DNA from: Schmidtea polychroa
Lineage: Eukaryota
Assembly: GCA_044892525.1 (NCBI GenBank)
Contig: CM097888.1
Location: 28,024,001 to 28,088,000, forward strand
DNA: 64,000 nucleotides
Direction of reading: 5' to 3'
Shown here: in pieces, positions 42,419-62,425 of the stretch
Position numbering within the stretch: position 1 is the first letter of the stretch
Layout of the letters: each line of letters begins with the position of its first letter
Notes under the pieces: generated by a model
What the model saw: the letters and a program-made list of their open reading frames with translations, nothing else
The model's database searches: none
What the model was told of the DNA's origin: nothing
Position numbers and translations under genes: made by a program

Positions 42419-42442
42419 CTTATATATTATTTTTCGTCCAAT
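42419..42442 (-). promoter_or_regulatory. LTR promoter: inverted CCAAT box plus TATATAAG
   Basis: Conserved in both LTR copies; a ~25-bp direct repeat pair lies just downstream in both. Confidence 0.55.
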
Positions 42443-43176: not shown

Positions 43177-43803
43177 TCACATGATCTCAAGGTTCGGAAT
43201 GTCTTGGTTGGTTGAATTCTGGGTCGGATGGCTGGTTGAAGTTGTTATCGTGGGGAGCTGGATTGTAACAGGCATTTGGTCAGGAGATAGATTTTGTTGC
43301 ATTTGGTCGGGTGGGTTTGGTTGTTGAAAATATACTGCTCGTTTATGTTTATTTTTCGATCGTGGGTTCTTTCTTTCGTGTTTCTCGGATAGTGACTGGT
43401 TTCTTCTCCATGTTCGATGAATATCATACGCTTTCCAGATGACTAGTGCGCAGATGATAAGAGTTTCACTGATGGTAGTATAGAGTAAGACTTGGCTTTC
43501 TTTTACTTCCTTCTTCATGATGATTTCCTTCAAGGATTGTTGGGTGGTTTGTTCTTGTAAGAGAATTTCGAGCTGTTCGATTTTTTGGGTTTGTAGGTGG
43601 AGTTGCATTTGAAGTTTTTGCCAGACGGCTTTGTTCCAGCATTGTTTCGGGATGTTGTTGGAGAGCTTTCTTTCGCTTTTCAGTTTGGTTAACGGGTTTT
43701 GCTGTTTCTCGGGATTCTCCCAGAATGTTGGGATTGGCTGCCACATGGGTATTCCGTTTATCGCTATCATCATTATTGTCACCAGGGTTGCTCCGAACCA
43801 CAT
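43177..43803 (-). CDS. Accessory ORF, predicted type-I membrane protein (208 aa)
   Basis: N-terminal hydrophobic signal MWFGATLVTIMMIAING; TM LLYTTISETLIICALVIW followed by a basic and then Q/P/T-rich tail. Confidence 0.65.
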   Translation of the reverse strand: MWFGATLVTIMMIAINGIPMWQPIPTFWENPEKQQNPLTKLKSERKLSNNIPKQCWNKAVWQKLQMQLHLQTQKIEQLEILLQEQTTQQSLKEIIMKKEVKESQVLLYTTISETLIICALVIWKAYDIHRTWRRNQSLSEKHERKNPRSKNKHKRAVYFQQPNPPDQMQQNLSPDQMPVTIQLPTITTSTSHPTQNSTNQDIPNLEIM

Positions 43804-43858
43804 ACTACTATACGAAAATTTTTATTTACAATTATTTACATTGATCATTCATCTTTAA

Positions 43859-44560
43859 TTATTGCCGGGTTTTCTTTTTACGGGTTTTCTCGGATGTTCT
43901 CATCACTCTCGTTTCTGCTTTTATTACTCGTTTTCTCAATTCGGGTAGTACTTTTAATTGTTTGTCTCTTTCGTCTAACTGTTGCCTTAGGGTTATTATT
44001 TTTTCTTTTAGTGCTTTTATTTCTTGTGTTGCTCTTTCGAGGTTTTTATGGTTCATTATCTGTAGAAAATCATTTTCCCTTTCCCCGTCTTCTTCGTTGT
44101 CTATTTCCTGGTATTTGTTGTTCATTCGTCTCATTATCTCACATTCTTTCTGTTTTTGGTGTAGTTGGAGTTGTAACTCTTTCAGGCTTTCTTGGTGTTT
44201 CCGTGCCTCGGTTTTCCAATAGTCACTAATCACTTCGTCGGCCTTTCGACTGGCCCTCTCCTGCCATAATTCTTCCGCGATCTTTTCCCAATTTCTCCCT
44301 CGCTTTCTTTGCTCGTGAAGCCATTCGTTTTCTTTCTCTACTTCTTTCTTTACTCCTTCTAACAAGATATATTCTCTTTTCAATACTTTAATCCTTTTTC
44401 GATTATCTCTCCACCTTTCAACTAATCTTTCGTTTTCCTGTCTCTCTTCTTGTAATTCTTCCTTGATAGTTTTCTTCCTCTCCACTTCATCAACTTCAAT
44501 TTCTCCCTCTTCTAACTCGATTATAGATGTTATGCTGGGTTGTCCGTTTTCAGTGTTCAT
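43859..44560 (-). CDS. Accessory coiled-coil protein (233 aa)
   Basis: Intact ATG ORF, E/K/R-rich heptads, same A-rich strand bias as the polyprotein. Confidence 0.7.
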   Translation of the reverse strand: MNTENGQPSITSIIELEEGEIEVDEVERKKTIKEELQEERQENERLVERWRDNRKRIKVLKREYILLEGVKKEVEKENEWLHEQRKRGRNWEKIAEELWQERASRKADEVISDYWKTEARKHQESLKELQLQLHQKQKECEIMRRMNNKYQEIDNEEDGERENDFLQIMNHKNLERATQEIKALKEKIITLRQQLDERDKQLKVLPELRKRVIKAETRVMRTSEKTRKKKTRQ

Positions 44561-44734
44561 TTTCTATAATATATACATAATTAATAATTGCGCTACAGTG
44601 CGGCTTATACTTATACATTTATATGTTATTTTATAATCAGGGTTACAGTCCCTTTCATACTTTTACTGTACCATTAATTTTTTTGGTTGGGATACAGGTC
44701 CCGATTTTTATATTTTTTATCTTTCCTTTTATCT

Positions 44735-45772
44735 TTATACAAAGGTCTCTTCCTGGCCTACATATCCCTCATCGCTTTCTACTGACGTTTGTAATTGGAG
44801 TGCGATGGGATCAAATGGGATGTAGTACCGGGGAATCTGCGCTCTAAGTTCTTGCACTTCGTCTCTTAGTGCTCTTGACACGTTAAGTTCCTCGTCCAAC
44901 AGGTATGTTAGATACCTGGTTTCATCGTCTCTTACCTCTATCTGTTTTTCTAGCTCTTCCGCTTTTTCGCCGTTTTCCCATTTCTTGATCTCTATCTCCA
45001 GATTTTTAAGATTTTCGTTATACATTTTCCTTTCGTTTTCTAACTTTTTGTTTTTCCCCGCCAGTACCATATTTCTCTGCTCCAGAGCTCCTTGGTATCC
45101 GTTGACATCTCGTTCTAGTTCTGCGACCTTATTCACCAGTTCCACGAGTCGTCCTGACTGTTGAAGTATCAGTTCTTCCATTGCGGCATTCTCGTGCTCC
45201 CTTATGGAGATTTTCATGGCTAGATGTCTTTCAAATTCCATGGCTTTGGTCTGCCATGTTTGGCTTCGGGCCGCAATCTTTCTGAGCCGTTTCAGTTCTT
45301 CTCTCATGACCAGATTTTCCTCCCATTTGCCTTGTTCGCTTTCGTATTCTAATCTCATAGGCAATTCTTTCATTTCTTTTTTCATCTCTTTGTTCTGCCG
45401 CTTCCAGTTTCGGGCTTCTGCCAATAGGTGATTCATTTTCCTTCCTTCCTTTTGTTTTTCTGCTTCTCGTTTTGTGTTTTCGTCCGTCAATCGTTTCCGT
45501 GCTTCCTGCACTAACTGTTTTAAATAGTGGCTGTGCGCTTCTTGGCGAGTGTTTTCCAATGATGCCCACTTAGAGGCTCTTTTGCATGCTTCTGCTTCGG
45601 CTCTTAAATTGTTTACTAACCACTGATATTTGTTATTCTCGTATTCCCTGGCCTCTTCGAGATGGTTGTGGGTCTGGTTCGTCAATTGTAACATTACTTT
45701 GACCCATTTTCCCTTATGGATTTTATTGACTTTGGTTTCGTGGTTTGGGGCTTCAGTTCCTTCTTGTGTCAT
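44735..45772 (-). CDS. Accessory coiled-coil protein (345 aa)
   Basis: Intact ATG ORF, long heptad-rich helical sequence. Confidence 0.72.
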   Translation of the reverse strand: MTQEGTEAPNHETKVNKIHKGKWVKVMLQLTNQTHNHLEEAREYENNKYQWLVNNLRAEAEACKRASKWASLENTRQEAHSHYLKQLVQEARKRLTDENTKREAEKQKEGRKMNHLLAEARNWKRQNKEMKKEMKELPMRLEYESEQGKWEENLVMREELKRLRKIAARSQTWQTKAMEFERHLAMKISIREHENAAMEELILQQSGRLVELVNKVAELERDVNGYQGALEQRNMVLAGKNKKLENERKMYNENLKNLEIEIKKWENGEKAEELEKQIEVRDDETRYLTYLLDEELNVSRALRDEVQELRAQIPRYYIPFDPIALQLQTSVESDEGYVGQEETFV

Positions 45773-45992
45773 CTTTGTCTAAATAACGATATCATTAACT
45801 TAACGTTGTACGCTTATATCTGGTTTATTAGTTATTTATTTTTATAATTCGTTATAGGAGTTGTTTTAGGAGTTTTTCGCTTAAGTTTACCTTTGGTAGA
45901 TTTGGGGGGAATTTTTCTACACTACTATATAATATTTTACTGGATATATACGCCGATATTTACAATTAGTATATACAAAATTATTCGTCTCT

Positions 45993-47381
45993 CTACTCAG
46001 TCCTACTCTTCCCGTCTCGCCTCACCGCTATTTTCATGTATATAGTGTCGTTTCTCGTCATGTCTTCTACTTTCCGCTGTAGGATGAAATTTGGTGCTCC
46101 AGTTGCTGGTCCTTCTTCTTCCAAGGGCCTTTGGTAACATACGAGGTTTCCCGCTGTATGGAAACTCTGTTCGTGTATACTTTGATAGTTCATCATTGCG
46201 AGGTCTATTTTTGCTTTGAATGGCCATTCTATTAACTCGTCGTATGGCCCTTTGCACATCAAGAAGAATACTGAGAAATGCGTTCCGTATGCACTTCCAT
46301 CCCCATTGGGGTATGCTTTCATTTTCATTTTATACCCGTTTTTCCATGAGTAGAATGCTGGACTTAGTAATGTTGTATCCTTTCCATTTCTCGCTCTCTG
46401 CATCTTCTCTTTTACTCCCGTTATTTTCCATATGTACGGAGCCGTAGGTATTAATTCGTTGAGGTTTAATTCGCTTACTTTTTGATGTAGTTCTTTCACC
46501 ATAATGTTGCTAGTTTCTACTAGATCTGTCTGTATCTTTGTACTTGTTCTCGCCTCTTCAAATGCTTCCTTTTCTTCCAATAGTTCTTTTACCAACGCTT
46601 TTAGCGAGACTATTTCTCTTTCTAAGTTTTCGGTTTTCCTTTCGTTTTCCTGTAATACCGTTGACCATATTTCCGCGTGTGTTGATACGTTTTCTGCTAG
46701 ATGTTGGGGTAATTCCCCTCGGTGTAATTGTTTCGGACATCCCCATTTTCCTAGCACACACGTTATCTTTTTTCTTTCACACTCTTTTAGATGTTGAGCG
46801 AGTTTTATTACTCCGGGTTTATCGCATTTGTTGGGGCATTCTCCTCTGAATTCTGCGCACACTTTCTCCTCTTGTATGTTGTGATGTTGACTGATTAGTT
46901 TCTTCCAGGTGTCGTTTTCTCCGCAATACTCGCATTTCTCTAGTCTTTCTTCGCATCGACTTTGATGTTCTGCTTCTTCATTGACTTTAATCTCTTCTTG
47001 GCAACGTTTGCATTGACTGATTTTATACTCACATTGCTCCATATGTTGCCTCACTTCCCATATCACTCCTCGCCAATTACATGGGGTGTTTTTACATCCT
47101 AGGTTTGCATTCAACATATCTTTTACAGCTGCTTTATCTTCGTTTGTATCTCCCAAACTTGTTATCATTGTTTCTTTGCATACTGGGCACCATTGTGGTC
47201 CCTTCTTTATTATCTCCTCTACACATTCTCTGCACATTCTGCATCCACATCTGGTTTGGTGAGGTTCTCTTAATAAGCTCTTGCATATTCCACACGTTAC
47301 ATGGTTGTGTATTCGAATTGTGGTGGACTTTCTGATTTGTTCAACAATTTCTCTGAATTCTTCTCGTTGTCGCTTATCCAT
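45993..47381 (-). CDS. Intronless TRAF-family protein (RING, TRAF zinc fingers, coiled coil, MATH), 462 aa
   Basis: CGICKSLLREPHQTRCGCRMCRECV..CPVC; zinc fingers HMEQCEY..CKRC; MATH YIWKI..SPAFYS..GYKMKM..YPNGDG..GTHFSVFF..KGPYDELIEWPF. Confidence 0.95.
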   Translation of the reverse strand: MDKRQREEFREIVEQIRKSTTIRIHNHVTCGICKSLLREPHQTRCGCRMCRECVEEIIKKGPQWCPVCKETMITSLGDTNEDKAAVKDMLNANLGCKNTPCNWRGVIWEVRQHMEQCEYKISQCKRCQEEIKVNEEAEHQSRCEERLEKCEYCGENDTWKKLISQHHNIQEEKVCAEFRGECPNKCDKPGVIKLAQHLKECERKKITCVLGKWGCPKQLHRGELPQHLAENVSTHAEIWSTVLQENERKTENLEREIVSLKALVKELLEEKEAFEEARTSTKIQTDLVETSNIMVKELHQKVSELNLNELIPTAPYIWKITGVKEKMQRARNGKDTTLLSPAFYSWKNGYKMKMKAYPNGDGSAYGTHFSVFFLMCKGPYDELIEWPFKAKIDLAMMNYQSIHEQSFHTAGNLVCYQRPLEEEGPATGAPNFILQRKVEDMTRNDTIYMKIAVRRDGKSRTE

Positions 47382-47470
47382 TTCTATAATTATATATATA
47401 CATATATTCGTTACTGGTACAGTTTCGTATTTTTATTTACATTTATTTACATTGCTATTTTAGGTTATAT

Positions 47471-47998: not shown

Positions 47999-50900
47999 CT
48001 ATATACGTGAGCTTGGAGGGCGCTGAGCATTCCAGGCCTCCACCCACTGTTCCTGCTTGATATTACTTGGTCGTTTTACACGATGTTGAAAATTTCTTAT
48101 TCTGGCCATTTCTAGTTCTCCGTGATGCCGTCTATCTTTGATTATTTTTATTGTCCCCCCCGTTATGATTAAAAAGGCCCCTGTTATTATTATGCCGCTG
48201 ATCCACATCATCTGTTTTATGCTTATAATTTCCGCTTTTTCCTTGCTCGTTATTGTTGATATTGCTTCTGTGCTTTTTAGATTACCGTCTTTGCCATTTC
48301 CTTTCATCATTCCTCGTATTCTTGCTATTTCCTCGTTCATACCTTCCTTTGCCATTTTTTGTATTTTCTCCATCTCCTCCTCGGATACATAATTGTCTTG
48401 ATGTTTCTCACTGTTTTTCTTGCGTTTTCCTTGCTCATCTTTTTCATCATCGATTTTTCTTTTCTTCCCTCTTTTCCCAGGGTATCGTCGACATTCTCTC
48501 GCTGTATCTTTTCTCCAGATGCATATTGTGTATTCTTTTGGAGGTTGTTGCTGTATTACATATTGTAGACAGTCTTCACCCGGTCTTAATCTTGCGATGC
48601 AGACTTTGTGTTCTTTTCTTGGCTGGAGTTGCGTTATCACTACCTCACCTCCTTTTCCCAGGTGTACCTCCTTCCCTTTGACTTTCGTTATTCTCTTTCC
48701 TTCTCGATTTCGGTATGCTTCTTGTATTCTTACTTCCGTTATTGGTTCTGCATCTTCATTTTTTAACACTAGTCTCTGATAAGCTCTAGACATACATCTT
48801 CCTAATATACACCTTTCTTTTAAATCCCATTCTTCTTTTAGATCCCATTGCTGCTCTTGTACTTGTTTTTTCTTTTCTTGTTTTAGTTCTTCCTCTTTGT
48901 TGTCCTTATTTTCCGTTTCTTTGGCTTCTTTTATCGTTCTCATTCCTCCCTGGGCTGTTATCATTTCCACCATTGTTAATACGAGTATCATTATCATCAT
49001 ATTTGTCTCCATTTCTTTGTTGGTAAAAAGTAGACATACCCTCTGTTTTCCACTATTCGTCTTTTCTTCTTGCTTTATTCGGTTTCTCGGGTTGTTTTCC
49101 TCTTTTTTCCTACTCGCGTCGTTATTTTCTTGATTATTCTCCTCTGATTTCTCTTTCTCTTTATTCCCGTTTCGACTTTTTTCATTATTATCGTCGTCTT
49201 TATCGTCTTTATCTCCCCCGCTATCGTTTATAATGTCGTCCTCGACATTTATATCATTCAACAATCTGCGGTATGCCGTTAGCACTCTGTTTCTTGCTAA
49301 TTTTGCTTCGAGTTCGAACTCCTTTCTGCCTGTTGCTACATGTCTCTTTCTATTCCATTCTTTCACTAATTCTCTTAATTGTATCCGACGATGTTTCCCG
49401 ATTCGCTTTTGTTCGTTTAGATTCTGCGTGAATTTGAGATCTTCCCTGTTTAATACGATCATTATGATTTTCGGAGTTCCTCCTTTTGTTAGTGTATTTT
49501 TAACCATAGCATTTTCTCCGTTTTCGTAGAACTCATTTATATTTATTGCATATTTATTGCTTTGTGGTATTCTCCATGTTAGCAGCAACTTCATGGCTTC
49601 TAAGTTCATCCGTATCGTGTTCCATTGGAACTGTGACGTGTTTTTACAGATATTTTCTACCTCAGTTCTTGTAGCATTTTTACAAATGAATCTAATCATT
49701 TCCAAGTTTGGTTGTATTGTTGCCCAATCCATGGCAGAATTTCCTTCGTTTGATATTTCGTCAAGTCTTGATCCCGATCGATGTAGTATATGTAATGTTT
49801 TCGGGTGTATATTTGTTATGGCTGCATACATCATTGCTGTTTCTCCTTGTTCATTTTTTGCATTAGATTCTTCTCCGAAGTCTCTAAGGATTCTTATGAT
49901 GGTTATTGCTCTGTTTTCTTTTGCTGCTAAAATGGCTTGTTGTAATGGTGTTCTTGAGTCTTTTGTTGGTAAGGTGAATGCTAGTGGTATAAATGTTTTT
50001 ATTTTTCCTATGTCTAGATTTGTGGTCTGATCTCTTGCGTAGGTGTGTACTGTTTTGGTTATTTTTGCTAGTATCGCTTCATCGGATAGATCTTGCATTT
50101 CTTCAAAGAATACTTCTTTAGCCTTACGTACTACTATCTCTTGGTCGGAGTTTATTGTCTTTGGTTTACTTGTTGTTGCTATATCGGTTATTGGTTGATC
50201 GACTTGTTCCTCAGACTCTCTTGCTTTTACTTTCTTCCTTTTTATCTTTTTCTTGTTCGAATTGTTAATGCGTTCCTCTGCCGTTAGAACTTGAATAATG
50301 CTTAGGTAAGTTTCTCGAATGTTGTTCATATTTTCCATCATATATAATACATTCACGGTTTCCCAAAATTTTACTTGTACTTTATCGGTAAATTGAGATA
50401 TAGCTTTTTCGAAGTTGATAATTCGTTTTCTGATTAGTTGTTCGTCTTTGTGATTTGAGAACTTTATGCCACGTTGTAGTAGTTGATTTGGAATTTCGAA
50501 TAGGTGATGTCCTCTCATCGCTTCTCTCATCAAGGTATTTTCTCCTTTGGTAAATGTTTCGTTTATATCTACCATATAATCGTTTTTGATCGGGTTCCTC
50601 CATGCAATTAGTATTCCAGTAATTGTTATTAATTTCTCTTTGATTGCAGTTAATAGCCCGTCATACATGTTTCCTATCTCTCTATTATCCTCATATGATA
50701 ATAGATCTACTAAGATTATGAAGGCTTCCGTACTTTTCCCTTCGATTGCATGATGTAGTGCATTTTTCTGGTTGTGGTCTTGTGTGGTTATCTTTGACCC
50801 AGTTTCAAGTAATGCGATGATAATATCTTTAGCTTTATCCCGATTGGCTGCTATCATTAGTGGAGTGTAACCTTGGTTGTTTTCTTGATCTGTCGAAATG

Positions 50901-53900
50901 TTACAATCGCGAAATGCTTCAATTGTTTCTAATATCTGTTCGTTACTACCCACCTTTAAAAGCTTGTGCAGGGGTGTGTCTCCGTAATGGTCTGTGATCG
51001 TGAATAATATAGGCCATTGACTTTTAACTACCCTGAGCAATGGGTGTGTTCTTTCTCGGTTTGCATAATTTTCGATCATTGTTAGCAGACCTCCCAATAT
51101 CTCAAAATCTAATCTGTCTTCTGCCCATCCGGGCATTTTAACTTTTACTTCCTTTATGATTTTCTCGGCTTCTGATGGTTGTAACCCTAATCGATTACCT
51201 GTTGGTTCGTTTATTTGCTGTAACATGTTTATTCTATACGTTTGTGATCTTGTCGTTAGTGTACGTCCTTCTGGTTGACTGGTGGCGGTTTTCGGAATTG
51301 GCTTACATCGTGCAACATTTACGTATATTGGTCTTGTAAAAGGGTTGTTCACTAATCGTACTCTTACATTAGTTTCTCCGACGAATAGAATCTCATACGG
51401 CCCTTTACCGTTTCGTTGTAATTTTTTGGTGGTTCCTGGAATTAATTCTGGTGTTTCAATCATCACCCAATCGCCTGTTTGAAACGTATGCTGTTTGACG
51501 TTTTTCTTTCTATCATGTAACTCTTTGTAACTTTCTTGATAAAATTTTATATTCAATCCTGCGGTTTCCCAGATTTCCTGCATTCTTTCCTTGAACTTGG
51601 TTACATAATCGTCTATTTCCATGTATTGTGATATCGGTGGCTGATATTCTAAATCCATTGGCATATTGCATTCTCTGCCGTACATCAACTTGAACGGACT
51701 CATCTTTGTGGACGCGTGAATCGACATTCTGTAAGCCATTAGACATAATTTTATATATTCATCCCAGTCTCGTTGATGACGATCGACATAATTTGATAAC
51801 ATTTGAATCAGTGTTCCATTGAATCTTTCTGTCATACCATTAGTTTGTGGATGGTACGGTGATGTTCTTAATTTTGCGATCTTGAAGTAGTTGGTGACTT
51901 CGCTCATTATTTCGCTCATGAAATTCGTTCCTTGATCCGTCAGTATTTGTTTCGGCGTTCCATATCGACAACATATTTCCTCTACTAATATTTTTGCGAT
52001 TGTTCTTGCTTTCTGATCTGCCATTGCGAATGCTTCGGGGAATTTTGTCAAATAATCTGTGATTACCAATATATATATATTTCCTCTATCTGATTCTGGT
52101 AGTGGACCGACTACGTCCATTGATATCATTGTCATTGGTTCTGCTGGTACTGGCATTGGCTTTAATGGTGCCTTCCATTTTGTTCCCGTGTTTTTTCTGG
52201 TTGCGCAAGTTATGCAATTTTTCACCCATTCCGTTACATCCTCGGTCAATGTAGGCCAAAAATATTTTTGTTTCATTCGTGCCAACGTCTTTTTAGATGA
52301 CATATGTCCTCCGAGTCTTCCGTCATGGTATTGTGTTAGTAGATCTTTACGTCTATTCTCGGGAATGCACATCAGTCTTTTCTCGCCATCCATTATCAAT
52401 AACCAATCTTTCTCGATAATATATCGATGTCGATGTTTATCCATATGCTCCTTCAATTTTTGATCTTTCTCATATACCTCTGCTTTCCCTGTTTTCGCAT
52501 ATTCAATGATTTGCTTCAACTCTGTATCCTCTTGTTGGTCTTTCCGTAATTGGCAAAAATCTAAATCTTCTGCTACCATCAGACATATTCGTTGCATTTC
52601 GTGATCTACTAAATCTGGAAAGATAAATCTGGACATACAATCCGCATTGGCATTCGCTCTTCCCGCTTTGAATTTTATGAACGGTGAATATTCTTGTAAC
52701 TGCATTGCCCATCGCATCAATCTACTTGAAGCTTCTTTGTGTTGACCAAGCCATACTAATGGTTGATGATCCGTGGTGATACATATTTCGTGTCCCCATA
52801 ACAAATATCGAAAATGTTTAATTGCTTGTATGATTGCTAACGCTTCTCTCTCGGTTACGGAATAGTTTTTCTCGTGCTTTTTAAACGTTCTACTGTAGTA
52901 TCCAATCACTCTTTCTTTTCCTTCTTCATCCAGTTGTCCTAATATTGCTCCGGCTGCATATCCACTTGCATCTGTTGCTAATAGGAACGGTTTCTTGAAA
53001 TCAGGATGTACTAGTATTGGGGCTTCAATTAATTTATCTCGCAATGTCTCAAACGCTTTTTGTTGTTCTGCACCCCAAATAAATGAAATATCCTTTTTCA
53101 CTAATTCCTGTATTGGTTTCGCAATACCTGCATAGTTTTTGATGAATTTTCGATAATATCCGCATAATCCGAGAAATTCTTGAACTTGGGTGACAGTTTT
53201 TGGTGCTGGACATGTTTTTATTTTTTCTATGTTTCTTGGATCTGGTTCTTTGCCTTTTGCTGACACTATGTGTCCTAAGAACGTAACCTTTTCTTTTGCC
53301 CAATCACATTTGGATGGTTTAAGTTTCAGTTTCCATTGTCGTAATCGAACGAACACGTTTCTGATATCTTCCAAATGTTGTTCGAAAGTTGCTGAATATA
53401 TTAATAAATCATCAATATATACCATACATTGCTTGATCCCGTGTGTGACAAAATTCATACATCTCTGGAATGATGCTGGGGCATTGGTCAGTCCGAACGG
53501 CATTTTCCTGAATTGGTATAGATCTCGGCCCAATGTGAATGCTGTTTTCTCTTTGTCTTCCTCCTTGACTTTGATCTGCCAATATCCACTTTTCAGATCT
53601 AAAGATGTAAAATATGCGGCCCCCTGTAACATAAGTAACATCTCATTGATGTCTGGTAAAGGGTATGTGTCTCTTTTTGTTACTGCATTTAATTTCCGAT
53701 AATCGATACAGAATCTCTGAGTACCGTCTTTTTTCTTCACCATGACTACTGGAAATTGCCATGGCGAACAACTTGGTTCGATCACTTGTGCATCTAGCAT
53801 TTTTTGTACTTCTGCTTCGGCTATCTCTTTTTGCTTCTCTGCTAGTTTGTATGGACGTAGTGCGATTGGAGTTTCGTCTATTAATGGTATTGCGTGTAGT

Positions 53901-56900
53901 GTAACATCGCATGCTCCCAAATCTAAATCCGAAATTGCGAATATATCTTTATATTCTATCAATAATTGTTGAAGTCTCTCCTTTTCTTTTTCCGTTAGCA
54001 AGGTGCTATCAATTATCCATAATTCGTCCGCTTTCGTTGTTTCGTTGGTGATTTTTGGTAATTCGATGTCTATCATGGGTGTCAATCTACCCAATCTTTC
54101 ATTTTCATATATGATCTTGTCTTCTTCCTCGAAATTTGTGATGTTAATTGGTATTTCCCCGTCTTCATTTATTGTTATTATTTCTCTTGCTAATGGTAAT
54201 TCTCGTCGTTTTTCGAATGATTTGCTTGGCTCAAAAATGACTTCTCCTTCCATTCCTGCATCCACTTTTATTTGACATATCATCTGTGATTTTGCGGGTA
54301 CAATTATTTTCTCCGGACATCTAATTATTGCGTTCATCTTGCATATTCTACCCATTTTGTCTTTTAGACACATTGTTGTTAAATCGATTACTACTTCCTT
54401 AAACAATTCCGGCATTAAATCCGTTCCGATTATACATGGTTCACTCAGTTTGGGTATCACCGCTAGATACGTTTCAATTTCGTTATCCTGATATCGTAAC
54501 GTAGTCCACCATCTTCCTACTACGTCTACGGTTTCTTTACTGCATGCAATAATATGGATAGTTGTTTGTTCGATATCTTTCCAACATTTACTGGGTATTT
54601 GGTTTATTGCTATTGCTGATACGTTTGCTCCGGTATCTATCATTGCGCTTGTCTCTTTCCCGTTGATTTGGATCATGACTGTTACTGCCGCACCTCCTGG
54701 TGAACTCATCACTGCTATCGTTCTTACGTCGTCCGCTTGGTCTACACTTTTCGTTCTTCGGGTCGGCATATAGTTCATCCCTGGTTGACTTGGTAACTGT
54801 GGATACATATTTTGTGTCATGGTCAAAGCTGTTTGTTGTCCAACGATATCTGGTGGTATATAACTTCCGTTGGCTATCCAGGTATTTGTTTTTTCTTTCT
54901 CCCAATATGGTGCTGTTTCTATTGGCTTTTCATTCGGGTTTCTACTTGGATATGGGTATTTGTCATTCCCGTTGTCGTCATCATCACTATCGCTGCTGTT
55001 TGATCGATTCCTAAATCTGTCTAAGAATTTTGGTTTGTTCTTTTTCAGTTGCGTCCTTGTTGCTTCATCATACATTGTTTTCCGAAATCGTCTACCGACT
55101 TCCTCGTCAGTTCCTTTTATTTTTGTCAGTATTTTGATCAATCGTTTTATTCTATGTATGTCTTTAGAATGACCGTGCAACACCATTGTTTTTGCCAAAA
55201 ATGGTAGAAAGCCTACTATCAATTTCCAATTTACCTTCTTTTCTCTCTTATAGATATCAAAACACGCTAACATTTGAGTCAATATTACTCTAACTATCTG
55301 GATAATAAGAATGATTCCCAATATTCCTGCCATCATTTGACCGAACACTAGAAATCTTCCCCACATTGCTTTCATCATGTTTGACGTGGCTTGTTGAAAA
55401 TGATCAGGTGACAATAATAGTTCGTAATTGGGGCCTGACTGGAAATTCGTTCCCCCAGTTATGGTAACCATATTCGATAGAATGGATTCCCGTCTTGCTG
55501 GGAATAATACGTTTAATCGTGCCGTTTCTAAATCCTCTGGTGAGTACATACCTGCTTTTGACACATCAATTGGTTTGAAATCTTGTTCTGTTGCGAGTTC
55601 TATTAGTCCAAACTTTTTAGGCTCTTGTACTTCGGTTTTTACTGGTAACATTATCCATTTCCCATCGGGTTTTTCATATAACGGTCCGTATGCATTTGAA
55701 CAGTTAAAGGTGTTCGGATAAAATCCAATTGGGTTCATGATTCGAGTGACGGGTTGAACGAATCTGTTTCGCCCTTTGTAACTAATTTCCAACTCGTTTG
55801 CGCATTTCCCTGGTGGAATTGTGGGCTTTCTTGGCAGTCGCGCAAATGTCTTGGTACATGCATATGTATACATTACCTCTCCCACCATTCTACCAAAATG
55901 TCCATCCGGTAACGGGAGTGATGGCATTGTGTTATCTGGGTGTGTTATTGCGATGGCTAATTTTGTTTTTAGTATCTCTTTATTCAATGAACAGTCATTT
56001 TGTATAAGATCGTAATACACTTTTTGCATTGTCGTTTGTCCTCGGTGGAACAAGAAGTCCATCTTATTATTGGCATACAGGTACAATTTTACGTCCTCCG
56101 TTGCTACCTTTCCCACTGCTCGGTCTATTACTTGCCTTGACATGTAGATACCTGCGTAGTTCGTCCGGTATACTATACTGTCACATTTGGTGGTCTCTTT
56201 TTCTCTAATGAATCTCATGCCGATGTCTGGATCATCGGTAATTAATGCCGTTGGTGTTTTTTGGGTTGTGAGTCTCTTTTCTTTGGGGGATGGCGGAACT
56301 GGTTTCCCATTTCGCATCCTTACGTTTCCATTCTCTTCATCGTCATCCTCGTTTTCGTAAATTTCTCCTTTTACTTCATTGAATAGAGCACTTTTTAACA
56401 ATTGGAGTCGGCATTTTTGGGTGTTAGCTTCATATATTATAGTCGAAATCCCCGTTCTACACACGTTTTCCGTAGCTCTGCATGCTGGGTTGGTTTTCAT
56501 TTGATAGTTGTTTGCGTCGAATTGTGCTTCGTATTCCTTCAACTCCACTGTGTAGGACTCAATTACTACTACTCCTGATATCACCTCTCCTCTGATCGTA
56601 TATGTGCCTCCGTTACATGATCCATCCGTTGATTTTACTCGTCCGGCTACATAGATACTTTCCGTCTTGATCATTCCGCTTTGTCCGTGTATTGTTACTC
56701 CATCCCTGATTCTCATCGCTCCGGTTCTAAAAAGCTCTTTACAGTCTTCCCGTTGTATAGGTACTATTTCTTTATCTAATCCAGGTAATATGAGGGTTGA
56801 ATATGAGTATTGTCCACAGTAATATGCCAACACTTTCTTCGATACTACGCATTCTCTAGCTTGCGTTCTAATGAAATCTGATTCTTGGTATACGTGATAG

Positions 56901-59900
56901 GAGACTTTCTTTTTTACTATATCTAATTTATTCGGAGACGCCTGTCTACATTCCTCTATATCTCTCAGGGAGTATCTTTCTCCTATTATCGAATTGTCAC
57001 AGTCGTAAATAGTAAATCCCGCGGCTCCACTGGTGCAGAGCATCCATATCATCATGGTCATCATTAGTGAATTAATCGACGCTTTTCTGCTGGCTGGGTC
57101 TTTCAATGGCAATTCCCATTCTAGCTTGTTTAGTAATTTCTTCAACCGAATTTGCATTGATCTCTCTTGCTCGTTTTTTCGTGGCGCTTGTATGAGTCTT
57201 TTCCACCCACCGGCGCGGATAATATGTGGTTCGATTGTATTTTCGATGATTGTAACGGTCATTTCTACATGATTTGCGAATTGTTTGTTAGGTATTTTCC
57301 TCGCTGCTAATCCCATCAAATTGTACATTAGATACGTTAATACTACTAAATGATGTTCGTCGTCGTTTGCGTTTAAAGTTAATTGTTCAATTACTCTTCT
57401 TGTCTCTTCCCAATCGGTTTTAGTGGTTTTTGTCTTCTCTTTGATTAATTTCGGAATTATTCCGGATATTGTATTCCATAGTTGTCTGGCGTCTACGCTT
57501 GCTACTTTTCGTTGCCATAACCGTCGCAATTGTGGGTTCGTTATTATTAGCATATCTTTTACTAGCTCTCGTATCCATTTTTCGCCTCTTTCGATAGTTG
57601 GCTGGGCCTCTTTTAGATCCCACACTATTTTATCCAGTTTCTCTAATCTGACTTGTCCTTGTTCTTGTTTCAGTTGTTCTCTAGTTTTAAATTCCGGTTT
57701 TTCTCCTTGCTTCTTGGGTCTCCCTTTTGCCCGTTTTTCCATCATTGTTCCGGCTTCCCTTGTATTTTCATAATTCGGGTTTCTCTCGTTATCCGTTCTT
57801 GGCAATGAGCTATCGTTGTTTCTCAGCCATTCGTTCCATTCGTCTATTATTTTGTCCGTTTGACCTTCTGGTGTTGCTTTCGTTGGTCCTTTCTGTCGTT
57901 GGAATTGTTCGTCGGTTTCGGTTTCTGTTGTATTATCGATAATCTCCTCGATACTCAGCTTATTTGGCTGCTGATAGCTAGTTGACGGTTGGCTTGTTGT
58001 CCATATTTCGGCTCCTGTCGGCCATCTTACCAGAATTGGTGATCTTTCTCCAGCTCCTTCATCGCTGTCTTCCAATATAATTTCCTCGATTTCCTCGGTT
58101 TCATTCGTTTTACTTGCCACTTTGTTAGGGCTTGGTGTACTCAAGCTACCTTTCGTAGGTTTACTGGATTTGCTCTTCCTTTTAATCGGTTTTCCCAATG
58201 TTTCTGCCATTGTCAATACATTGATCTCCCCCAATCTCATGGGTGTTATTCCGACATCTGCATTATCATCCAACGATTTTCCGAATAGTTGTAGGTGAAA
58301 TGGAGTTTCGTATGCTAATTTCTTTTTTAACTCTCTGATCTTTGTTGTTGGATGTACTTCTGTATCCTCAATGCTTTTGTCGGGATACTTGACTCGGATA
58401 CGATACCTTTCCTGGGTATCTTGTGCCCATTCTTGGTTTCTCCATTTCCTAATAATTTGTTCTAGCTGTTCTGGGTACCATTCGTTATATTGTCTGTATT
58501 CCTCAATCGCTTTCGCCATTTCTCTTAGATTGTGGATATTCTCTGATGTCTTTAGGATGATGTTAGCCAATGCTATTACTTGACGTTTTTGATTTTTTGT
58601 TCCCGTTGCTAAGATATCACCTAATTGTTTATATCTTTCCTTCTCTTCTCGTTCTCGAGCTTCCATCGCTTCTTCGCTGTCCATATCGGCATATTCGCGT
58701 TCTTTCTTTCTCATCGCATGAATATGTCTGGTTTCCGTTTCACTTTCTGATGTAACATCCGTTTCGCTTTCGTCGTCCGATGTCGATTCTATTTCGTCCT
58801 CTTCGTATTTTGGAGGTTCATCTTCCTCTTCTTCTGATTCGCTTTCTATCTCACCAATGTCTGTTTCCACGAAAATCCCTTTCCTGATTTCCCATTCTTT
58901 GTTTTCCGCATTCCACGTCCTTTCCCATGGGGTTCGTCTGCAGGATCTAACACTTAGTTTCTTTATTTTTCCTTGAAGCTCTTTTTCTTTTAGCCACTGT
59001 TGATGAATTTCAATTATCTCTACTGATTTTTGATATAGCGTTTTCATCCTGTCTCGTATTTCTTTCTGGTATGTTATATCTCTTGTTCGGAATTCGTCCA
59101 TGGGCAATATTCTGATGATTTGATGATTATCCCACATTCCCATTTCGCTTAGCGAGGTGTCGTCTTCGGCCCGTAATATTATTTTATCGTACATCATGAC
59201 TACGTCATCTATCATCCCGTCGCTACTCTCGCTTCGTACTTTTTCCGTTATCTCTTGGTTTATCTTGGTTACTAAGTCATCCACCGTACTCTGATTACTC
59301 ATCTTTATTCGTCGTTTCTCCTCGTTTGGTAACCATATGGTTATTTCTAATTTCTGCGGTTGCGTTTCTTTCAACCTTCCATATTTGTGGATCAAATTTA
59401 TGGTTCTCCAATCGCTCATCCTGAGCAATTCTGTATCTCGTAATCGGCTCATTAGTTCATGCATGTCTGGAGTTCGTCTTGCTATGAGTAAATCCCAGTT
59501 ATCTTCGACTTGTTCTTGAATTTGTTTGATTAATTTATCTAGATTTCGTCGCAAGGTGCATTGTTTTATTTGTTCCAGCTTCAGCTTGATGTTAAAATCA
59601 TACTCGGCCTTGGCGTCTTTAGCCCATTCGTGAATATTTGCTGGTTGCTTCTCTTTATACAATTTCAATATTTGAGTTTCTCCTGGCCAGATCAATGCAT
59701 CTATTAGGTGCATGTCTGGCTTAATTTGTTCTCCTTGATATTGATATAAATACTCTTTCTTTCTCGAGCTGCCCAAATGTTCTCTTATCCAATCAAAAAG
59801 CTCGTCTGTGACTGCATTTTTTATCCATATTCTCTCGAGTCCTTTACTCGTTCCGATTTTTATTACATAGCGTGTTGTCTCCGCTTGTTTCATTTTTTCC

Positions 59901-62425
59901 ATATACTTCTTTATTATCGCTTTTTCCTCGTTTGGTATTAGATCTTTTTCGTTTCTTTCTAGTTTCATTATCTTTTGTAAGAAGCGTTTATATGGTATAA
60001 GGTCGATGAACTCCTGGTTTCTTACTACTACTGGAAGTATTTCCTTTACTTGTTTTATCGCTTCTTCTCTTTCTTTTCTCAATTTCATTTCGATATTCTC
60101 GTCTTCGCTTTCGCTTGTCACGTCGCTTTCTCTTTCATCCTCATCTGCTCCGATCTTTTCTCTTAGTTGGTCGATATTTTCATTTAACTGTAACATTTCT
60201 CCACCAAGGCTACTCACATAATCCTCATCGTCATCTGTTGACAACACCTTCTTTGTTGTCCTCATCATATTAATTCGTAAATTTTTCATTCTTGGTACTT
60301 TCTTTAACTTTTTGTTCTCGAGTATCGTTAGCTCCTCTGAGTCTAATTCTCGTATCATATTATGCTTTAGATGATTAATCTGTTTTCCATTTTCGTTATT
60401 TTCTGCTTCTGCTTCTGTTTTTGTTTGCTCATTTTCTCTTTCGATTTTATCTTTTATCTTTTTCCAAAATATTTTCTGAATTCTCTGATTTCCTTTTAGC
60501 GGTGTTGTTGAATTTTCCTTTTTTGCTGCTGGAATTGTTTCTTTCGGTTTCTCTGGTTCGCTCATAGGTACAACTCTTGGATTTTTACCGTAATTGTAAC
60601 AATATTGCTCCTTTATCTCCTTTACCATCCTCATCATATTTATTCGTAGTGGTTGTTCTTGTCGCTGCTGAATTCGCTCTCTTTTTATCCTTTCTTCTTC
60701 AGCTTGTAGTCTTTGCCATTCTTGTGCATGTTGTTGCACTTCATAATTGTTAAGATTCTCGGTGCTTCTCATCATGCGTATATTCTGGGTTTGTTGTGGT
60801 ACTTGCTCTTGTCTCGGTCTCATCATTTGTTGCATCATCTGCTTCATTTGTGAAATTTCTTGCATCACATTCATTTGCTTTCCCTCACTAGGATTACTTT
60901 GTCGTTGCGGATTTGGTGCATAGTTATTATTTCGCTGTGGTGGTCGTTGCTGTTGGCTCCTTTCTCGACAGTCTCTTGAGATATGACCTGGTTGCCCGCA
61001 GTTAAAACATCCTCTCGATTGGCATATATTTTCCGTGTGTCCTCGTCGTCCACACCTATTGCAATTTGCGTTTCGGTAACAATCTCTATCCCAATGTCCT
61101 GGTTTACCGCATGTTCGGCATTGTTTGTTATCGTTCATATTTCGTCGATTATTAAAGTTGTTCCCATTGTTTGAGTTGTTGCGTTCACTGTTATTCCCGT
61201 TTGATCGTCCTTGTGGTGGTTTGAAAATTTGATGCGCACCTGGTATAAACTGATTCATCTTTGGTTCATGATTATTGTTATCTCCATTTTCCGTTTTCAC
61301 CGCTGCTGTTGCGATTCTTCCTTCCTCCTGCATGACATTCATTTGTGCCGGGAGGTGTAGTTCGCATCTTGTGGCCCAATCTATAGCTTCCTCTAGTGTT
61401 TTACACATTTGACATCCCACCGAGGCCCTTACCTCTTCTCGGCGTAGTCCTTCTATGAAGTACCCAATTAAGTTTTCCTCCGGCAAGTTTCCGTTCATGG
61501 CCTTCTTTGCCAATCTTCGCAATTCACTTGCGTATAACGTAATTGACTCGTTTGCTCTTTGTTTTCTACTTGCCAGTTCACCTAACGCTTGATTTATCGG
61601 TTTGCTGGCTCCGAATGTTTTTCTCAAGAATGTTTTGATGTTTTCCCAATTGTCTAATTTCGTATTTCTTTCTTTTGCTTCCAGATACACTTCGAGTGCG
61701 CTATCGCACAAAAACAGAGGCATTCGTTTACTAATTGCTTCGGATGTCCATCCACACACATCGATATAGACTTCAAAATTGGTTATGAACGTTGCCAACT
61801 TGTTCGCATTCCCGTTGAACGGTTCGCCTCTAAATTTTTCTTTATATTCGTCGGTTTTTGCTACATTCATCTTGATTGGTTCTTGAAATGCTAAAATTTC
61901 TTTTAAATTTTCTAATGATGTAGCTAAATTATGGACGGATAATTCTTCTGTTGACCCGGTTAGGTTGTTTGTTATATCGGATAGACTTTCTCTACTTCTA
62001 GATCGACTGGGCGTATGTCCGGCTGTGGGGTTTTCTTGATCGTATATCGGTGTTTTGTGGGGTCTTTTTGCTCCTTGTGATATTCCTCTCTGCTGCCTAA
62101 ATGATCGTCCTCTTTTGAGTTGATCTAATTCGTCTCCTGAAAATAATACGTCTCCTGGCTTACTTGAAGATCTAAGGTTGGGTTTATCCGTGATTTTCCT
62201 TTTACTCTTTTCTGTCTTTTCACGTGGATTTTCTACGGTTAGCGTCTGCTGAATTGGTCGAGTTCGGTTTTGATATTGTCTTCCTTTGTGCGGGTTCTGA
62301 ATTGCTTTTCCTGGGTTGTTTGTATATTCTCTGGATTCCTCTTGAGCTGGTTCTGAATTGACTTGGTTGGATTGATGTCTACAATGAAAATATGATATCG
62401 TGTTGCCTTTGCTTACACGAATCAA
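47999..62425 (-). CDS. 4808-aa Gag-Env-Pol-ankyrin polyprotein
   Basis: Gag MHR-like RKQRANESITLYASELRRLA; 3 CCHC knuckles (~60965-61130); glycoprotein from 57016; protease IDTGA (D at 54637); RT YIDD (53419); RNase H (~53010-52620); integrase HHCC, D-D-E and GPY; ankyrin repeats; terminal TM. First ATG is at 61870. Confidence 0.95.
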   Translation of the reverse strand: MIRVSKGNTISYFHCRHQSNQVNSEPAQEESREYTNNPGKAIQNPHKGRQYQNRTRPIQQTLTVENPREKTEKSKRKITDKPNLRSSSKPGDVLFSGDELDQLKRGRSFRQQRGISQGAKRPHKTPIYDQENPTAGHTPSRSRSRESLSDITNNLTGSTEELSVHNLATSLENLKEILAFQEPIKMNVAKTDEYKEKFRGEPFNGNANKLATFITNFEVYIDVCGWTSEAISKRMPLFLCDSALEVYLEAKERNTKLDNWENIKTFLRKTFGASKPINQALGELASRKQRANESITLYASELRRLAKKAMNGNLPEENLIGYFIEGLRREEVRASVGCQMCKTLEEAIDWATRCELHLPAQMNVMQEEGRIATAAVKTENGDNNNHEPKMNQFIPGAHQIFKPPQGRSNGNNSERNNSNNGNNFNNRRNMNDNKQCRTCGKPGHWDRDCYRNANCNRCGRRGHTENICQSRGCFNCGQPGHISRDCRERSQQQRPPQRNNNYAPNPQRQSNPSEGKQMNVMQEISQMKQMMQQMMRPRQEQVPQQTQNIRMMRSTENLNNYEVQQHAQEWQRLQAEEERIKRERIQQRQEQPLRINMMRMVKEIKEQYCYNYGKNPRVVPMSEPEKPKETIPAAKKENSTTPLKGNQRIQKIFWKKIKDKIERENEQTKTEAEAENNENGKQINHLKHNMIRELDSEELTILENKKLKKVPRMKNLRINMMRTTKKVLSTDDDEDYVSSLGGEMLQLNENIDQLREKIGADEDERESDVTSESEDENIEMKLRKEREEAIKQVKEILPVVVRNQEFIDLIPYKRFLQKIMKLERNEKDLIPNEEKAIIKKYMEKMKQAETTRYVIKIGTSKGLERIWIKNAVTDELFDWIREHLGSSRKKEYLYQYQGEQIKPDMHLIDALIWPGETQILKLYKEKQPANIHEWAKDAKAEYDFNIKLKLEQIKQCTLRRNLDKLIKQIQEQVEDNWDLLIARRTPDMHELMSRLRDTELLRMSDWRTINLIHKYGRLKETQPQKLEITIWLPNEEKRRIKMSNQSTVDDLVTKINQEITEKVRSESSDGMIDDVVMMYDKIILRAEDDTSLSEMGMWDNHQIIRILPMDEFRTRDITYQKEIRDRMKTLYQKSVEIIEIHQQWLKEKELQGKIKKLSVRSCRRTPWERTWNAENKEWEIRKGIFVETDIGEIESESEEEEDEPPKYEEDEIESTSDDESETDVTSESETETRHIHAMRKKEREYADMDSEEAMEAREREEKERYKQLGDILATGTKNQKRQVIALANIILKTSENIHNLREMAKAIEEYRQYNEWYPEQLEQIIRKWRNQEWAQDTQERYRIRVKYPDKSIEDTEVHPTTKIRELKKKLAYETPFHLQLFGKSLDDNADVGITPMRLGEINVLTMAETLGKPIKRKSKSSKPTKGSLSTPSPNKVASKTNETEEIEEIILEDSDEGAGERSPILVRWPTGAEIWTTSQPSTSYQQPNKLSIEEIIDNTTETETDEQFQRQKGPTKATPEGQTDKIIDEWNEWLRNNDSSLPRTDNERNPNYENTREAGTMMEKRAKGRPKKQGEKPEFKTREQLKQEQGQVRLEKLDKIVWDLKEAQPTIERGEKWIRELVKDMLIITNPQLRRLWQRKVASVDARQLWNTISGIIPKLIKEKTKTTKTDWEETRRVIEQLTLNANDDEHHLVVLTYLMYNLMGLAARKIPNKQFANHVEMTVTIIENTIEPHIIRAGGWKRLIQAPRKNEQERSMQIRLKKLLNKLEWELPLKDPASRKASINSLMMTMMIWMLCTSGAAGFTIYDCDNSIIGERYSLRDIEECRQASPNKLDIVKKKVSYHVYQESDFIRTQARECVVSKKVLAYYCGQYSYSTLILPGLDKEIVPIQREDCKELFRTGAMRIRDGVTIHGQSGMIKTESIYVAGRVKSTDGSCNGGTYTIRGEVISGVVVIESYTVELKEYEAQFDANNYQMKTNPACRATENVCRTGISTIIYEANTQKCRLQLLKSALFNEVKGEIYENEDDDEENGNVRMRNGKPVPPSPKEKRLTTQKTPTALITDDPDIGMRFIREKETTKCDSIVYRTNYAGIYMSRQVIDRAVGKVATEDVKLYLYANNKMDFLFHRGQTTMQKVYYDLIQNDCSLNKEILKTKLAIAITHPDNTMPSLPLPDGHFGRMVGEVMYTYACTKTFARLPRKPTIPPGKCANELEISYKGRNRFVQPVTRIMNPIGFYPNTFNCSNAYGPLYEKPDGKWIMLPVKTEVQEPKKFGLIELATEQDFKPIDVSKAGMYSPEDLETARLNVLFPARRESILSNMVTITGGTNFQSGPNYELLLSPDHFQQATSNMMKAMWGRFLVFGQMMAGILGIILIIQIVRVILTQMLACFDIYKREKKVNWKLIVGFLPFLAKTMVLHGHSKDIHRIKRLIKILTKIKGTDEEVGRRFRKTMYDEATRTQLKKNKPKFLDRFRNRSNSSDSDDDDNGNDKYPYPSRNPNEKPIETAPYWEKEKTNTWIANGSYIPPDIVGQQTALTMTQNMYPQLPSQPGMNYMPTRRTKSVDQADDVRTIAVMSSPGGAAVTVMIQINGKETSAMIDTGANVSAIAINQIPSKCWKDIEQTTIHIIACSKETVDVVGRWWTTLRYQDNEIETYLAVIPKLSEPCIIGTDLMPELFKEVVIDLTTMCLKDKMGRICKMNAIIRCPEKIIVPAKSQMICQIKVDAGMEGEVIFEPSKSFEKRRELPLAREIITINEDGEIPINITNFEEEDKIIYENERLGRLTPMIDIELPKITNETTKADELWIIDSTLLTEKEKERLQQLLIEYKDIFAISDLDLGACDVTLHAIPLIDETPIALRPYKLAEKQKEIAEAEVQKMLDAQVIEPSCSPWQFPVVMVKKKDGTQRFCIDYRKLNAVTKRDTYPLPDINEMLLMLQGAAYFTSLDLKSGYWQIKVKEEDKEKTAFTLGRDLYQFRKMPFGLTNAPASFQRCMNFVTHGIKQCMVYIDDLLIYSATFEQHLEDIRNVFVRLRQWKLKLKPSKCDWAKEKVTFLGHIVSAKGKEPDPRNIEKIKTCPAPKTVTQVQEFLGLCGYYRKFIKNYAGIAKPIQELVKKDISFIWGAEQQKAFETLRDKLIEAPILVHPDFKKPFLLATDASGYAAGAILGQLDEEGKERVIGYYSRTFKKHEKNYSVTEREALAIIQAIKHFRYLLWGHEICITTDHQPLVWLGQHKEASSRLMRWAMQLQEYSPFIKFKAGRANANADCMSRFIFPDLVDHEMQRICLMVAEDLDFCQLRKDQQEDTELKQIIEYAKTGKAEVYEKDQKLKEHMDKHRHRYIIEKDWLLIMDGEKRLMCIPENRRKDLLTQYHDGRLGGHMSSKKTLARMKQKYFWPTLTEDVTEWVKNCITCATRKNTGTKWKAPLKPMPVPAEPMTMISMDVVGPLPESDRGNIYILVITDYLTKFPEAFAMADQKARTIAKILVEEICCRYGTPKQILTDQGTNFMSEIMSEVTNYFKIAKLRTSPYHPQTNGMTERFNGTLIQMLSNYVDRHQRDWDEYIKLCLMAYRMSIHASTKMSPFKLMYGRECNMPMDLEYQPPISQYMEIDDYVTKFKERMQEIWETAGLNIKFYQESYKELHDRKKNVKQHTFQTGDWVMIETPELIPGTTKKLQRNGKGPYEILFVGETNVRVRLVNNPFTRPIYVNVARCKPIPKTATSQPEGRTLTTRSQTYRINMLQQINEPTGNRLGLQPSEAEKIIKEVKVKMPGWAEDRLDFEILGGLLTMIENYANRERTHPLLRVVKSQWPILFTITDHYGDTPLHKLLKVGSNEQILETIEAFRDCNISTDQENNQGYTPLMIAANRDKAKDIIIALLETGSKITTQDHNQKNALHHAIEGKSTEAFIILVDLLSYEDNREIGNMYDGLLTAIKEKLITITGILIAWRNPIKNDYMVDINETFTKGENTLMREAMRGHHLFEIPNQLLQRGIKFSNHKDEQLIRKRIINFEKAISQFTDKVQVKFWETVNVLYMMENMNNIRETYLSIIQVLTAEERINNSNKKKIKRKKVKARESEEQVDQPITDIATTSKPKTINSDQEIVVRKAKEVFFEEMQDLSDEAILAKITKTVHTYARDQTTNLDIGKIKTFIPLAFTLPTKDSRTPLQQAILAAKENRAITIIRILRDFGEESNAKNEQGETAMMYAAITNIHPKTLHILHRSGSRLDEISNEGNSAMDWATIQPNLEMIRFICKNATRTEVENICKNTSQFQWNTIRMNLEAMKLLLTWRIPQSNKYAININEFYENGENAMVKNTLTKGGTPKIIMIVLNREDLKFTQNLNEQKRIGKHRRIQLRELVKEWNRKRHVATGRKEFELEAKLARNRVLTAYRRLLNDINVEDDIINDSGGDKDDKDDDNNEKSRNGNKEKEKSEENNQENNDASRKKEENNPRNRIKQEEKTNSGKQRVCLLFTNKEMETNMMIMILVLTMVEMITAQGGMRTIKEAKETENKDNKEEELKQEKKKQVQEQQWDLKEEWDLKERCILGRCMSRAYQRLVLKNEDAEPITEVRIQEAYRNREGKRITKVKGKEVHLGKGGEVVITQLQPRKEHKVCIARLRPGEDCLQYVIQQQPPKEYTICIWRKDTARECRRYPGKRGKKRKIDDEKDEQGKRKKNSEKHQDNYVSEEEMEKIQKMAKEGMNEEIARIRGMMKGNGKDGNLKSTEAISTITSKEKAEIISIKQMMWISGIIITGAFLIITGGTIKIIKDRRHHGELEMARIRNFQHRVKRPSNIKQEQWVEAWNAQRPPSSRI

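Follow-up and report, generated by a model that had tools for sequence, protein, structure and literature searches.

Bcl-2 homologues are typical of large DNA viruses. Viral homologues such as herpesviral BHRF1/ORF16, ASFV A179L, adenoviral E1B-19K, and poxviral F1L (PMC11209288) are stand-alone genes of DNA viruses with an anchor of their own. The domain considered here resembles them in its fold, a predicted one, at 10–15% identity, in its eroded BH motifs, and in a hydrophobic C-terminal segment; it differs in being a segment of a retroelement polyprotein whose only candidate anchor is the signal peptide of Env.

Among retroelements, a BCL2-like motif has been reported in Burro-2, -3, and -4, after Grohme et al. 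2018, in a review (Arkhipova & Yushenova 2019, PMC6431247) whose section on Burro and GYPSM1 cites Grohme et al. 2018 and Jurka 2007. In Burro, a ubiquitin-like motif precedes BCL2, and Env lies in frame between BCL2 and the protease; the review proposes that BCL2 meddles with host apoptosis, as an untested idea worth experimental confirmation (PMC6431247). The Burro section gives the motif annotation alone, with no treatment in it of fold, selection, anchoring, AT-hook-like motif, or functional test. Within the library searched, this 2019 review was the sole relevant paper, and no structural or functional study of the domain was found. Both the motif and the BCL2–Env–protease order are, then, already in print for planarian Burro (PMC6431247); what is added here is the support for the fold, the breadth across lineages, the selection, and a conserved AT-hook-like motif upstream. 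The flatworm GAG-ENV-POL errantiviruses of the HSV/gB type (Chary & Hayashi 2026, PMC13524379) are likewise multi-copy Ty3/gypsy elements of Platyhelminthes with Env between Gag and Pol; two Schmidtea rows span ~14.8 kb, half of the element described below, and "Bcl" is absent from the main text and supplements of that paper.

A retroelement that keeps a Bcl-2 domain under strong selection at the Env signal peptide, and does so in many lineages, suggests either a management of host cell death or a reuse of the fold for assembly, and the boundaries, the model, and the selection data given below make the isolated domain testable.

The window (the whole stretch of 64,000 nucleotides of Schmidtea polychroa DNA that was analysed) harbors a virus-like, Burro-like LTR retroelement carrying a Bcl-2-fold domain. 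Its features are the following (window positions unless otherwise stated):

G000:C4 ~28088968–28093202, just outside the window: 5′ LTR
47999–62425, minus strand: ORF1 polyprotein, 4808 codons from stop to stop, 4623 aa counted from the first ATG
58202–58414, minus strand: weak ubiquitin-like domain (PF00240, E 0.011), ending in a protease-site-like motif at aa 1400, where the Bcl-2 piece likely begins
57011–57085, minus strand: internal Env signal peptide, with a basic n-region, a hydrophobic core of ~13 residues, and small residues before FTIYDC; putative cut site
55250–57016, minus strand: Env, a Monjiviricetes-type fusion glycoprotein (PF24664, E 6.5e-72)
55363–55250, minus strand: single transmembrane segment of Env, from sequence
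45993–47432, minus strand: accessory TRAF-like ORF (RING, TRAF zinc finger, and MATH by Pfam), separate and downstream of ORF1
38712–42945, minus strand: 3′ LTR of 4.2 kb with TG...CA ends

The element is 30.5 kb in total and young, since its twin LTR is nearly identical (one mismatch and one gap between the 5′ and 3′ copies) and a 4-bp target duplication (ATGG) flanks it. According to Pfam and sequence, ORF1 contains Gag, CCHC knuckles, a long insert, the Bcl-2 fold, Env, protease, RT, RNase H, integrase, and ankyrin repeats, in the order Gag–insert–Bcl-2–signal peptide–Env–PR–RT–RH–IN–ankyrin. The search of its own genome (G000) returned 731 candidates, the best 150 of which were scored; all 150 are 93–100% identical and 146 have a stop-free domain, so that at least 150 near-identical copies are counted.

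With ~30 kb, long LTRs, many copies, a single ORF1 in this order, and ankyrin and MATH/TRAF cargo, the element is Burro-like in its layout, as matched to the published description. It shares with Burro/GYPSM1, as described in PMC6431247, a length of more than 30 kb, the single ORF1 of ~4,800 aa, Gag with CCHC knuckles, the ankyrin and MATH/TRAF cargo, the ubiquitin-like motif before BCL2, and Env between BCL2 and the protease; unlike them, it encodes TRAF in an ORF of its own downstream of ORF1, and its scanned ORFs yielded no BIR, which is a variable cargo.

Three segments of the insert look ubiquitin-like (59884–59648, 59359–59093, and 58414–58202, minus strand), with weak Pfam support: E 0.011 for the third, 0.035–0.17 for the second, and none for the first. 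The motif [IVM][NCAH][AMVL][MLI] recurs in ORF1 at aa 361, 517, 594, 717, 1400, 2569, 2696, 3279, 3731, and 4462, falling on the borders of Gag, of the protease, of RNase H/integrase, and of integrase; two more matches (aa 1008 and 4023) have no clear border. As judged from the sequence, these are likely sites for the element's own protease. The C-terminal end of ORF1 (49000–48137, minus strand) holds a second signal-peptide-like stretch (aa 4476–4495) and a membrane segment (aa 4736–4763), possibly a second surface protein. Further frames lie within the LTR (253 codons, 39251–40012, minus strand), between the TRAF ORF and the 3′ LTR (three accessory frames, 43177–45778, minus strand), and just outside the window (a RING-finger frame, L061:1035–1526, minus strand). 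A stretch that follows the 5′ LTR by a few bases on its inner side (L061 tile) is, by resemblance, a putative tRNA-Pro primer-binding site.

The domain preceding the Env signal peptide

The domain and the motifs in and around it are located as follows (minus strand throughout; helices as predicted):

57710–57736: AT-hook-like basic motif (KGRPK), found nowhere else in the frame and preceding helix a1 by ~45 aa
57188–57590: Bcl-2-fold domain, aa ~1613–1746 of the 4808-codon frame (Pfam, profile, AF2)
57583–57539: helix a1
57496–57464: helix a2
57457–57440: helix a3
57412–57377: helix a4
57350–57367: BH1-equivalent loop, DDEH in place of the NWGR of Bcl-xL
57361–57302: helix a5
57289–57215: helix a6/7
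57205–57188: helix a8
57188–57232: BH2 motif (HIxxxGGWxxL)

A sequence-only reading of this DNA had placed a Bcl-2-like segment at 57190..57640, inside the polyprotein. The segment does lie in this frame, on the minus strand (its aa 1596–1746 being counted in the stop-to-stop frame 47999–62425), and the domain is real, but its predicted fold starts nearer nucleotide 57590 (aa 1612–1615), the first ~18 residues of that range forming a separate helix of low confidence.

The BH2-pattern motif was recovered at 57232–57188 as EPHIIRAGGWKRLIQ, with GGW in it and, in the window's family, His in place of the first Trp. The whole ORF1 frame holds a single GGW; alone this tripeptide is not rare, being present in 277 of 2000 shuffled frames, whereas the pattern [WHY][IVL]xxxGGWxx[FLI], written after the motif was seen, occurs in none of the 2000. 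The degenerate BH1 was also read correctly: NWGR is absent from the window's domain, and the DDEH at its place is unchanged in the four family-A variants compared. DWEETRR is found at 57415–57395 (minus strand), and the Gly/Ala-Asp of BH3 is absent from predicted helix a2.

The single sequence is barely informative by itself. Pfam on the 150-aa piece matched Bcl-2 as the sole family, weakly (16.1 bits, E 0.017) and below the gathering score of PF00452 (31.4 bits); phmmer of the PDB retrieved no Bcl-2 and two weak unrelated rows, word-index protein searches no relative at E 0.01, and the ESM Atlas a best score of 0.84 with no family. Profiles built from related elements perform differently. The profile of families B, E, and F finds its best site in the whole frame at aa 1613–1747 (25.9 bits) and gives 34.3 bits against the domain alone, a score reached by none of 1000 shuffles; with GGW masked it still gives 17.6 bits, compared to 7.9 at most for 1000 shuffles made without masking the domain, so that the likeness extends beyond this tripeptide. 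Families E and F alone yield 23.4 bits, and a family-B-only profile barely recognises the domain (6.2 bits, reached by 4 of 1000 shuffles). In the reverse direction, the PF00452 model matches 11 of the 12 aligned element domains (best E 8.8e-7), and a 14-row element-only profile matched 142 PDB rows, the best 60 of which are all Bcl-2 or Bcl-xL (best E 2e-4). When the families found through Bcl-2 queries (B, H, and I) are left out, the element profile places eight of nine stand-alone Bcl-2 frames above all of their 300 shuffles each, the one missed being the Bok-like L029.

The fold was predicted with AF2 from 14 element-only sequences (window 57188–57583, aa 1615–1746), which gave eight helical segments at a pLDDT of 84.5 and a pTM of 0.82. 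A first model, from 12 rows and with 20 extra N-terminal residues, had been poor (pLDDT 55); the better one has a trimmed N-terminus and family G added. All 41 among the PDB fold matches listed for the better model belong to the Bcl-2 family (Bcl-xL, BHRF1, Bfl-1, Mcl-1, and Bak), with a best TMq of 0.72 and a best E of 0.005, none reaching 0.001; among the viral matches, the named rows of the best 30 are mostly vBcl-2 or E1B small-T (best E 0.014). The poor model had given Bcl-2-family members in 34 of 34 matches listed, at E 0.05 or worse. The predicted model is a helical Bcl-2 bundle with a central, hydrophobic helix a5; given these family matches, the outcome foreseen as fatal by the sequence-only reading, no bundle and a likeness confined to GGW, did not occur.

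According to the profiles and the predicted model, the domain is a much-diverged homologue of the Bcl-2 fold and, since NWGR is missing, not a canonical member of the family. It is like cellular Bcl-xL, Bcl-2, and Mcl-1, its best profile and fold matches, in the helix order, the BH2, and a likely disordered arm before the domain; unlike Bcl-xL, it lacks NWGR, has Tyr and large residues in a5 instead of Phe-Gly-Gly and a short a3, and falls under the Pfam cut-off.

The Env signal peptide, 40 residues past BH2, is the single hydrophobic stretch that follows the domain. Its mean hydropathy over 19 residues is 1.36, compared to 1.0–1.6 in the tails of three stand-alone Bcl-2 proteins. The suggestion that this stretch could act as a C-terminal anchor may hold: it is as hydrophobic as true tail anchors, and the signal peptide is a putative membrane tether of the Bcl-2 piece; being the signal peptide of Env, it would put the domain at the ER rather than at mitochondria.

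Distribution, origin, and selective constraint

The domain lies directly before the Env signal peptide in all seven element lineages examined in G000 and in four outside proteins. Family B, which came from the Pfam Bcl-2 genome search, has it at the same place as the window's element; families E and F were retrieved by an Env search, where all 10 loci examined carry the domain, family G by a BIR search, where both loci examined do, and families H and I by a search with a stand-alone Bcl-2. Since E, F, and G were reached through Env or BIR, they are independent of any Bcl-2 query; families lacking the domain could have been missed, as only the best candidates were scored in the genome searches. 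A profile search of 1.84 billion proteins gave nine matches, namely five in a retroelement context, three short context-free pieces, and one stand-alone Bcl-2 above the Pfam cut-off; among the five, Env lies behind the domain in four, a zinc knuckle and a ubiquitin-like segment before it in two, and one has both. The distance from GGW to the YDC motif of Env is 44–72 aa in 11 of 15 lineages, the other four proteins being short or ending there, without an Env start.

The further Env-bearing families in G000 number at least six (L041–L051 for B, L088–L097 for E and F, L098–L103 for G, and L104–L115 for H and I), with open frames of up to ~3050–3440 aa in families B, E, and I. Accessory ORFs of the BIR-RING and TRAF-zinc-finger types are found in family G, and family H has the most canonical BH1 (NGDR or NGDK).

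Across the lineages, BH2 and the fold-core residues are conserved. Of NWGR, the W is lost in all 15 lineages, and the G persists nowhere but in P0007 and single copies from families E and I. At the basic position, 11 of the 15 have K or R, with Arg kept in families G and H; the window's family has His there, and E, F, and I have Val. The AT-hook-like motif [RK]GRP[RK] occurs once per polyprotein, 156–175 aa before the end of BH2, in five of the nine lineages with enough upstream sequence (besides the window, in L047, L098, L101, P0005, and P0011), whereas families E, F, H, and I lack it. Such a motif turns up, at any position, in 34 of 2000 shuffled frames.

The domain is under purifying selection, with a dN/dS of ~0.02–0.04 in the window's family. 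Compared to a subfamily A2 copy, the window's domain has 13.7 non-synonymous changes over 375 sites and 73.3 synonymous over 105, that is a dN/dS of 0.019 with dS near saturation; for the same A–A2 pair the ratio is 0.038 in Env, 0.013 in the protease, 0.005 in RT, and 0.04–0.08 in the insert. A closer family-A pair gives 0.035 for the domain. The values in family B are 0.105 (domain), 0.036 (Env), and 0.173 (insert), and the domain of family G has 0.11; the ratios of E (0.49), I (0.51), and H (1.08) say little, since they come from young pairs with few changes.

Each of two unrooted trees (27 and 21 rows) has a branch that keeps the element domains together on one side, with support of 98/98 and 95/89, respectively. 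For the second tree, three pieces without context, three near-copies, and two rows from the host were left out, and H and I were brought in; in both, the outside rows were chosen by the element profile and the branches are long. This topology fits a single old capture of a Bcl-2 domain. The derivation from the Bcl-2 family, which the sequence-only reading had put forward, is supported by the trees together with the matches of the element profile to Bcl-2/Bcl-xL and the scores of the stand-alone frames; since the trees are unrooted and their branches long, the donor gene could not be fixed. By profile score, the nearest stand-alone relative in G000 is L032 (33 bits), which groups with Maverick-type Bcl-2 genes and whose link to the element clade is weakly supported (78/88).

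Possible roles of the domain

The captured domain was also read at first sight as an apoptosis regulator, and by its homology it may be one, although sequence cannot settle the function. The reading that we prefer, with a probability of about 0.45, is that it works as a membrane-tethered, virus-style pro-survival decoy inhibiting host cell death. The following steps can be depicted, both cleavage sites being placed from motifs:

i. Signal peptidase would cut before Env, which would enter the ER lumen; the upstream chain would retain the signal peptide as a C-terminal tether, with the domain on the cytosolic side of the ER, and the single membrane segment of Env would return Pol to the cytosol.

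ii. The element protease may cut near aa 1400, since a border-type motif is found there too, and free a piece of ~400 aa, whose layout (disordered arm, Bcl-2 fold, and anchor) would be like that of Mcl-1.

iii. The remodelled groove would hold the BH3 helices of host Bak- or Bok-type proteins, and the particle-making cells would survive.

The predicted fold, the profile matches, the constant position before Env, the purifying selection, and the basic BH1 residue kept in most lineages speak for this reading. The cargo is in line with such a role (the TRAF ORF here, BIR-RING in family G), and a Bak-like gene of the host includes a BH3 exon (L116:9532–9627) in which the BH3 Gly/Ala-Asp is present, next to Bok-like genes (L029 and L031). 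On the other side, the location suggested by a signal peptide is the ER, and Bak is active at mitochondria; in NWGR the W is gone, the G is rarely kept, and the Arg is replaced by His in the window's family; no fold match reaches E 0.001 and the first model was poor. As for precedents, clear BH motifs are missing from vaccinia F1L and deerpox DPV022, which bind BH3 all the same (PMC11209288; PMC2836074), and viral proteins devoid of BH motifs that still bind Bak, Bax, or Bim are described in a review (PMC11209288); for a placozoan protein lacking the Gly of NWGR, a review reads a working BH3 groove as unlikely (PMC8998228). When the domain was modelled together with the BH3 exon of the host's Bak-like gene, the score was 0.00, with the alignment unused and the controls not folded, which speaks neither for nor against binding.

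A structural role would also fit the constant place of the domain, which contrasts with TRAF and BIR cargo that is gained and lost. The Bcl-2 fold might have been reused as an assembly adaptor that joins Env and the membrane with Gag or RNA and holds nucleic acid by its AT-hook-like motif; it would be left in the membrane by the Env signal peptide, like the leader peptide of foamy-virus Env. We regard this main rival as doubtful, yet it would account for the fixed place before Env in every lineage examined, for the loss of NWGR next to retained fold-core residues, for a basic motif that is rare in shuffled frames, and for a family-A constraint on the domain close to that on the protease. It is weakened by the families that miss the AT-hook-like motif and by the mostly kept basic residue of BH1, and the need for an anchor explains the position just as well. 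In a bolder form, which we consider unlikely, an ancient flatworm retroelement lineage would have made the captured fold a core virion part, namely a signal-peptide-tethered leader with an AT-hook arm, coupling Env and membrane on one side to capsid or RNA on the other; this would explain why the domain never moves or vanishes while other cargo does.

Also rather improbable, in our judgement, is a modulating role at the ER outside apoptosis, in autophagy, calcium release, or innate signalling of the TRAF/NF-kB type, such as several viral proteins with the Bcl-2 fold have. The ER-type tether, the altered groove, and the TRAF, RING, ankyrin, and ubiquitin-like cargo of the same element would suit it, and poxviral Bcl-2-fold proteins without a defined role in apoptosis, as well as links to IP3R and Beclin 1, have been described (PMC11209288); but Bcl-xL, Bcl-2, and herpesviral vBcl-2, and not the poxviral signalling inhibitors, head the matches in both fold and sequence.

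That the domain is a pro-death or pore-forming module helping particles to leave the cell is very unlikely: the fold is common to Bak and Bax, and helix a5 is hydrophobic, but helix a2 lacks the Gly/Ala-Asp found in the host Bak-like exon, the inheritance of the element needs living cells, and family G carries an IAP-type gene. Finally, a chance helical segment resembling Bcl-2 only in GGW, for which the poor single-sequence searches (Pfam, PDB, protein databases, and Atlas) could speak, is largely refuted by the masked-profile scores, the AF2 fold and its matches, the relatives in the protein databases, and the recognition of stand-alone Bcl-2 frames.

Other Bcl-2 genes and further observations

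Stand-alone Bcl-2 genes with a hydrophobic tail of their own are present in G000 in multi-copy elements of the Maverick/Polinton type, which carry an A32-type ATPase, an integrase, and PolB (L036–L040, L052–L055, L059–L060, L074–L075, and tiles L069–L070); Bcl2 in adintoviruses has already been published (PMC8502044). A TAG in these multi-copy matches was considered as a read-through stop, an idea that was rejected: the matches are Maverick-type elements and the TAG lies in an apparent short intron. L032 was seen once among the matches of the Pfam Bcl-2 genome search and has a likely intron after GGW. Moreover, seven near-identical copies of a canonical, NWGR-bearing Bcl-2 exon (L021–L027) lie in one region, G000:C4 89.9–90.8 Mb.

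Contigs from sequencing runs, whose RNA nature is a guess and which have no silent-stretch control, cover 30 of 30 bins for X1, 17 for X6, 12 for X7, and none for X8.

The element appears to have inserted into an older Gypsy-type element (34823–38712; Gag, protease, and RNase H pieces, with matching repeats on the far side). An older relic at 16291–20482, with ~71–73% identity to parts of the LTR, is possibly a solo LTR of a related family. Elsewhere, the window harbors a host exon resembling GTF3C1, two pieces of hAT transposase, and a DDE_3 transposase that carries HTH domains (5497–6387, 13453–14070, 23879–25042, and 26612–27865).
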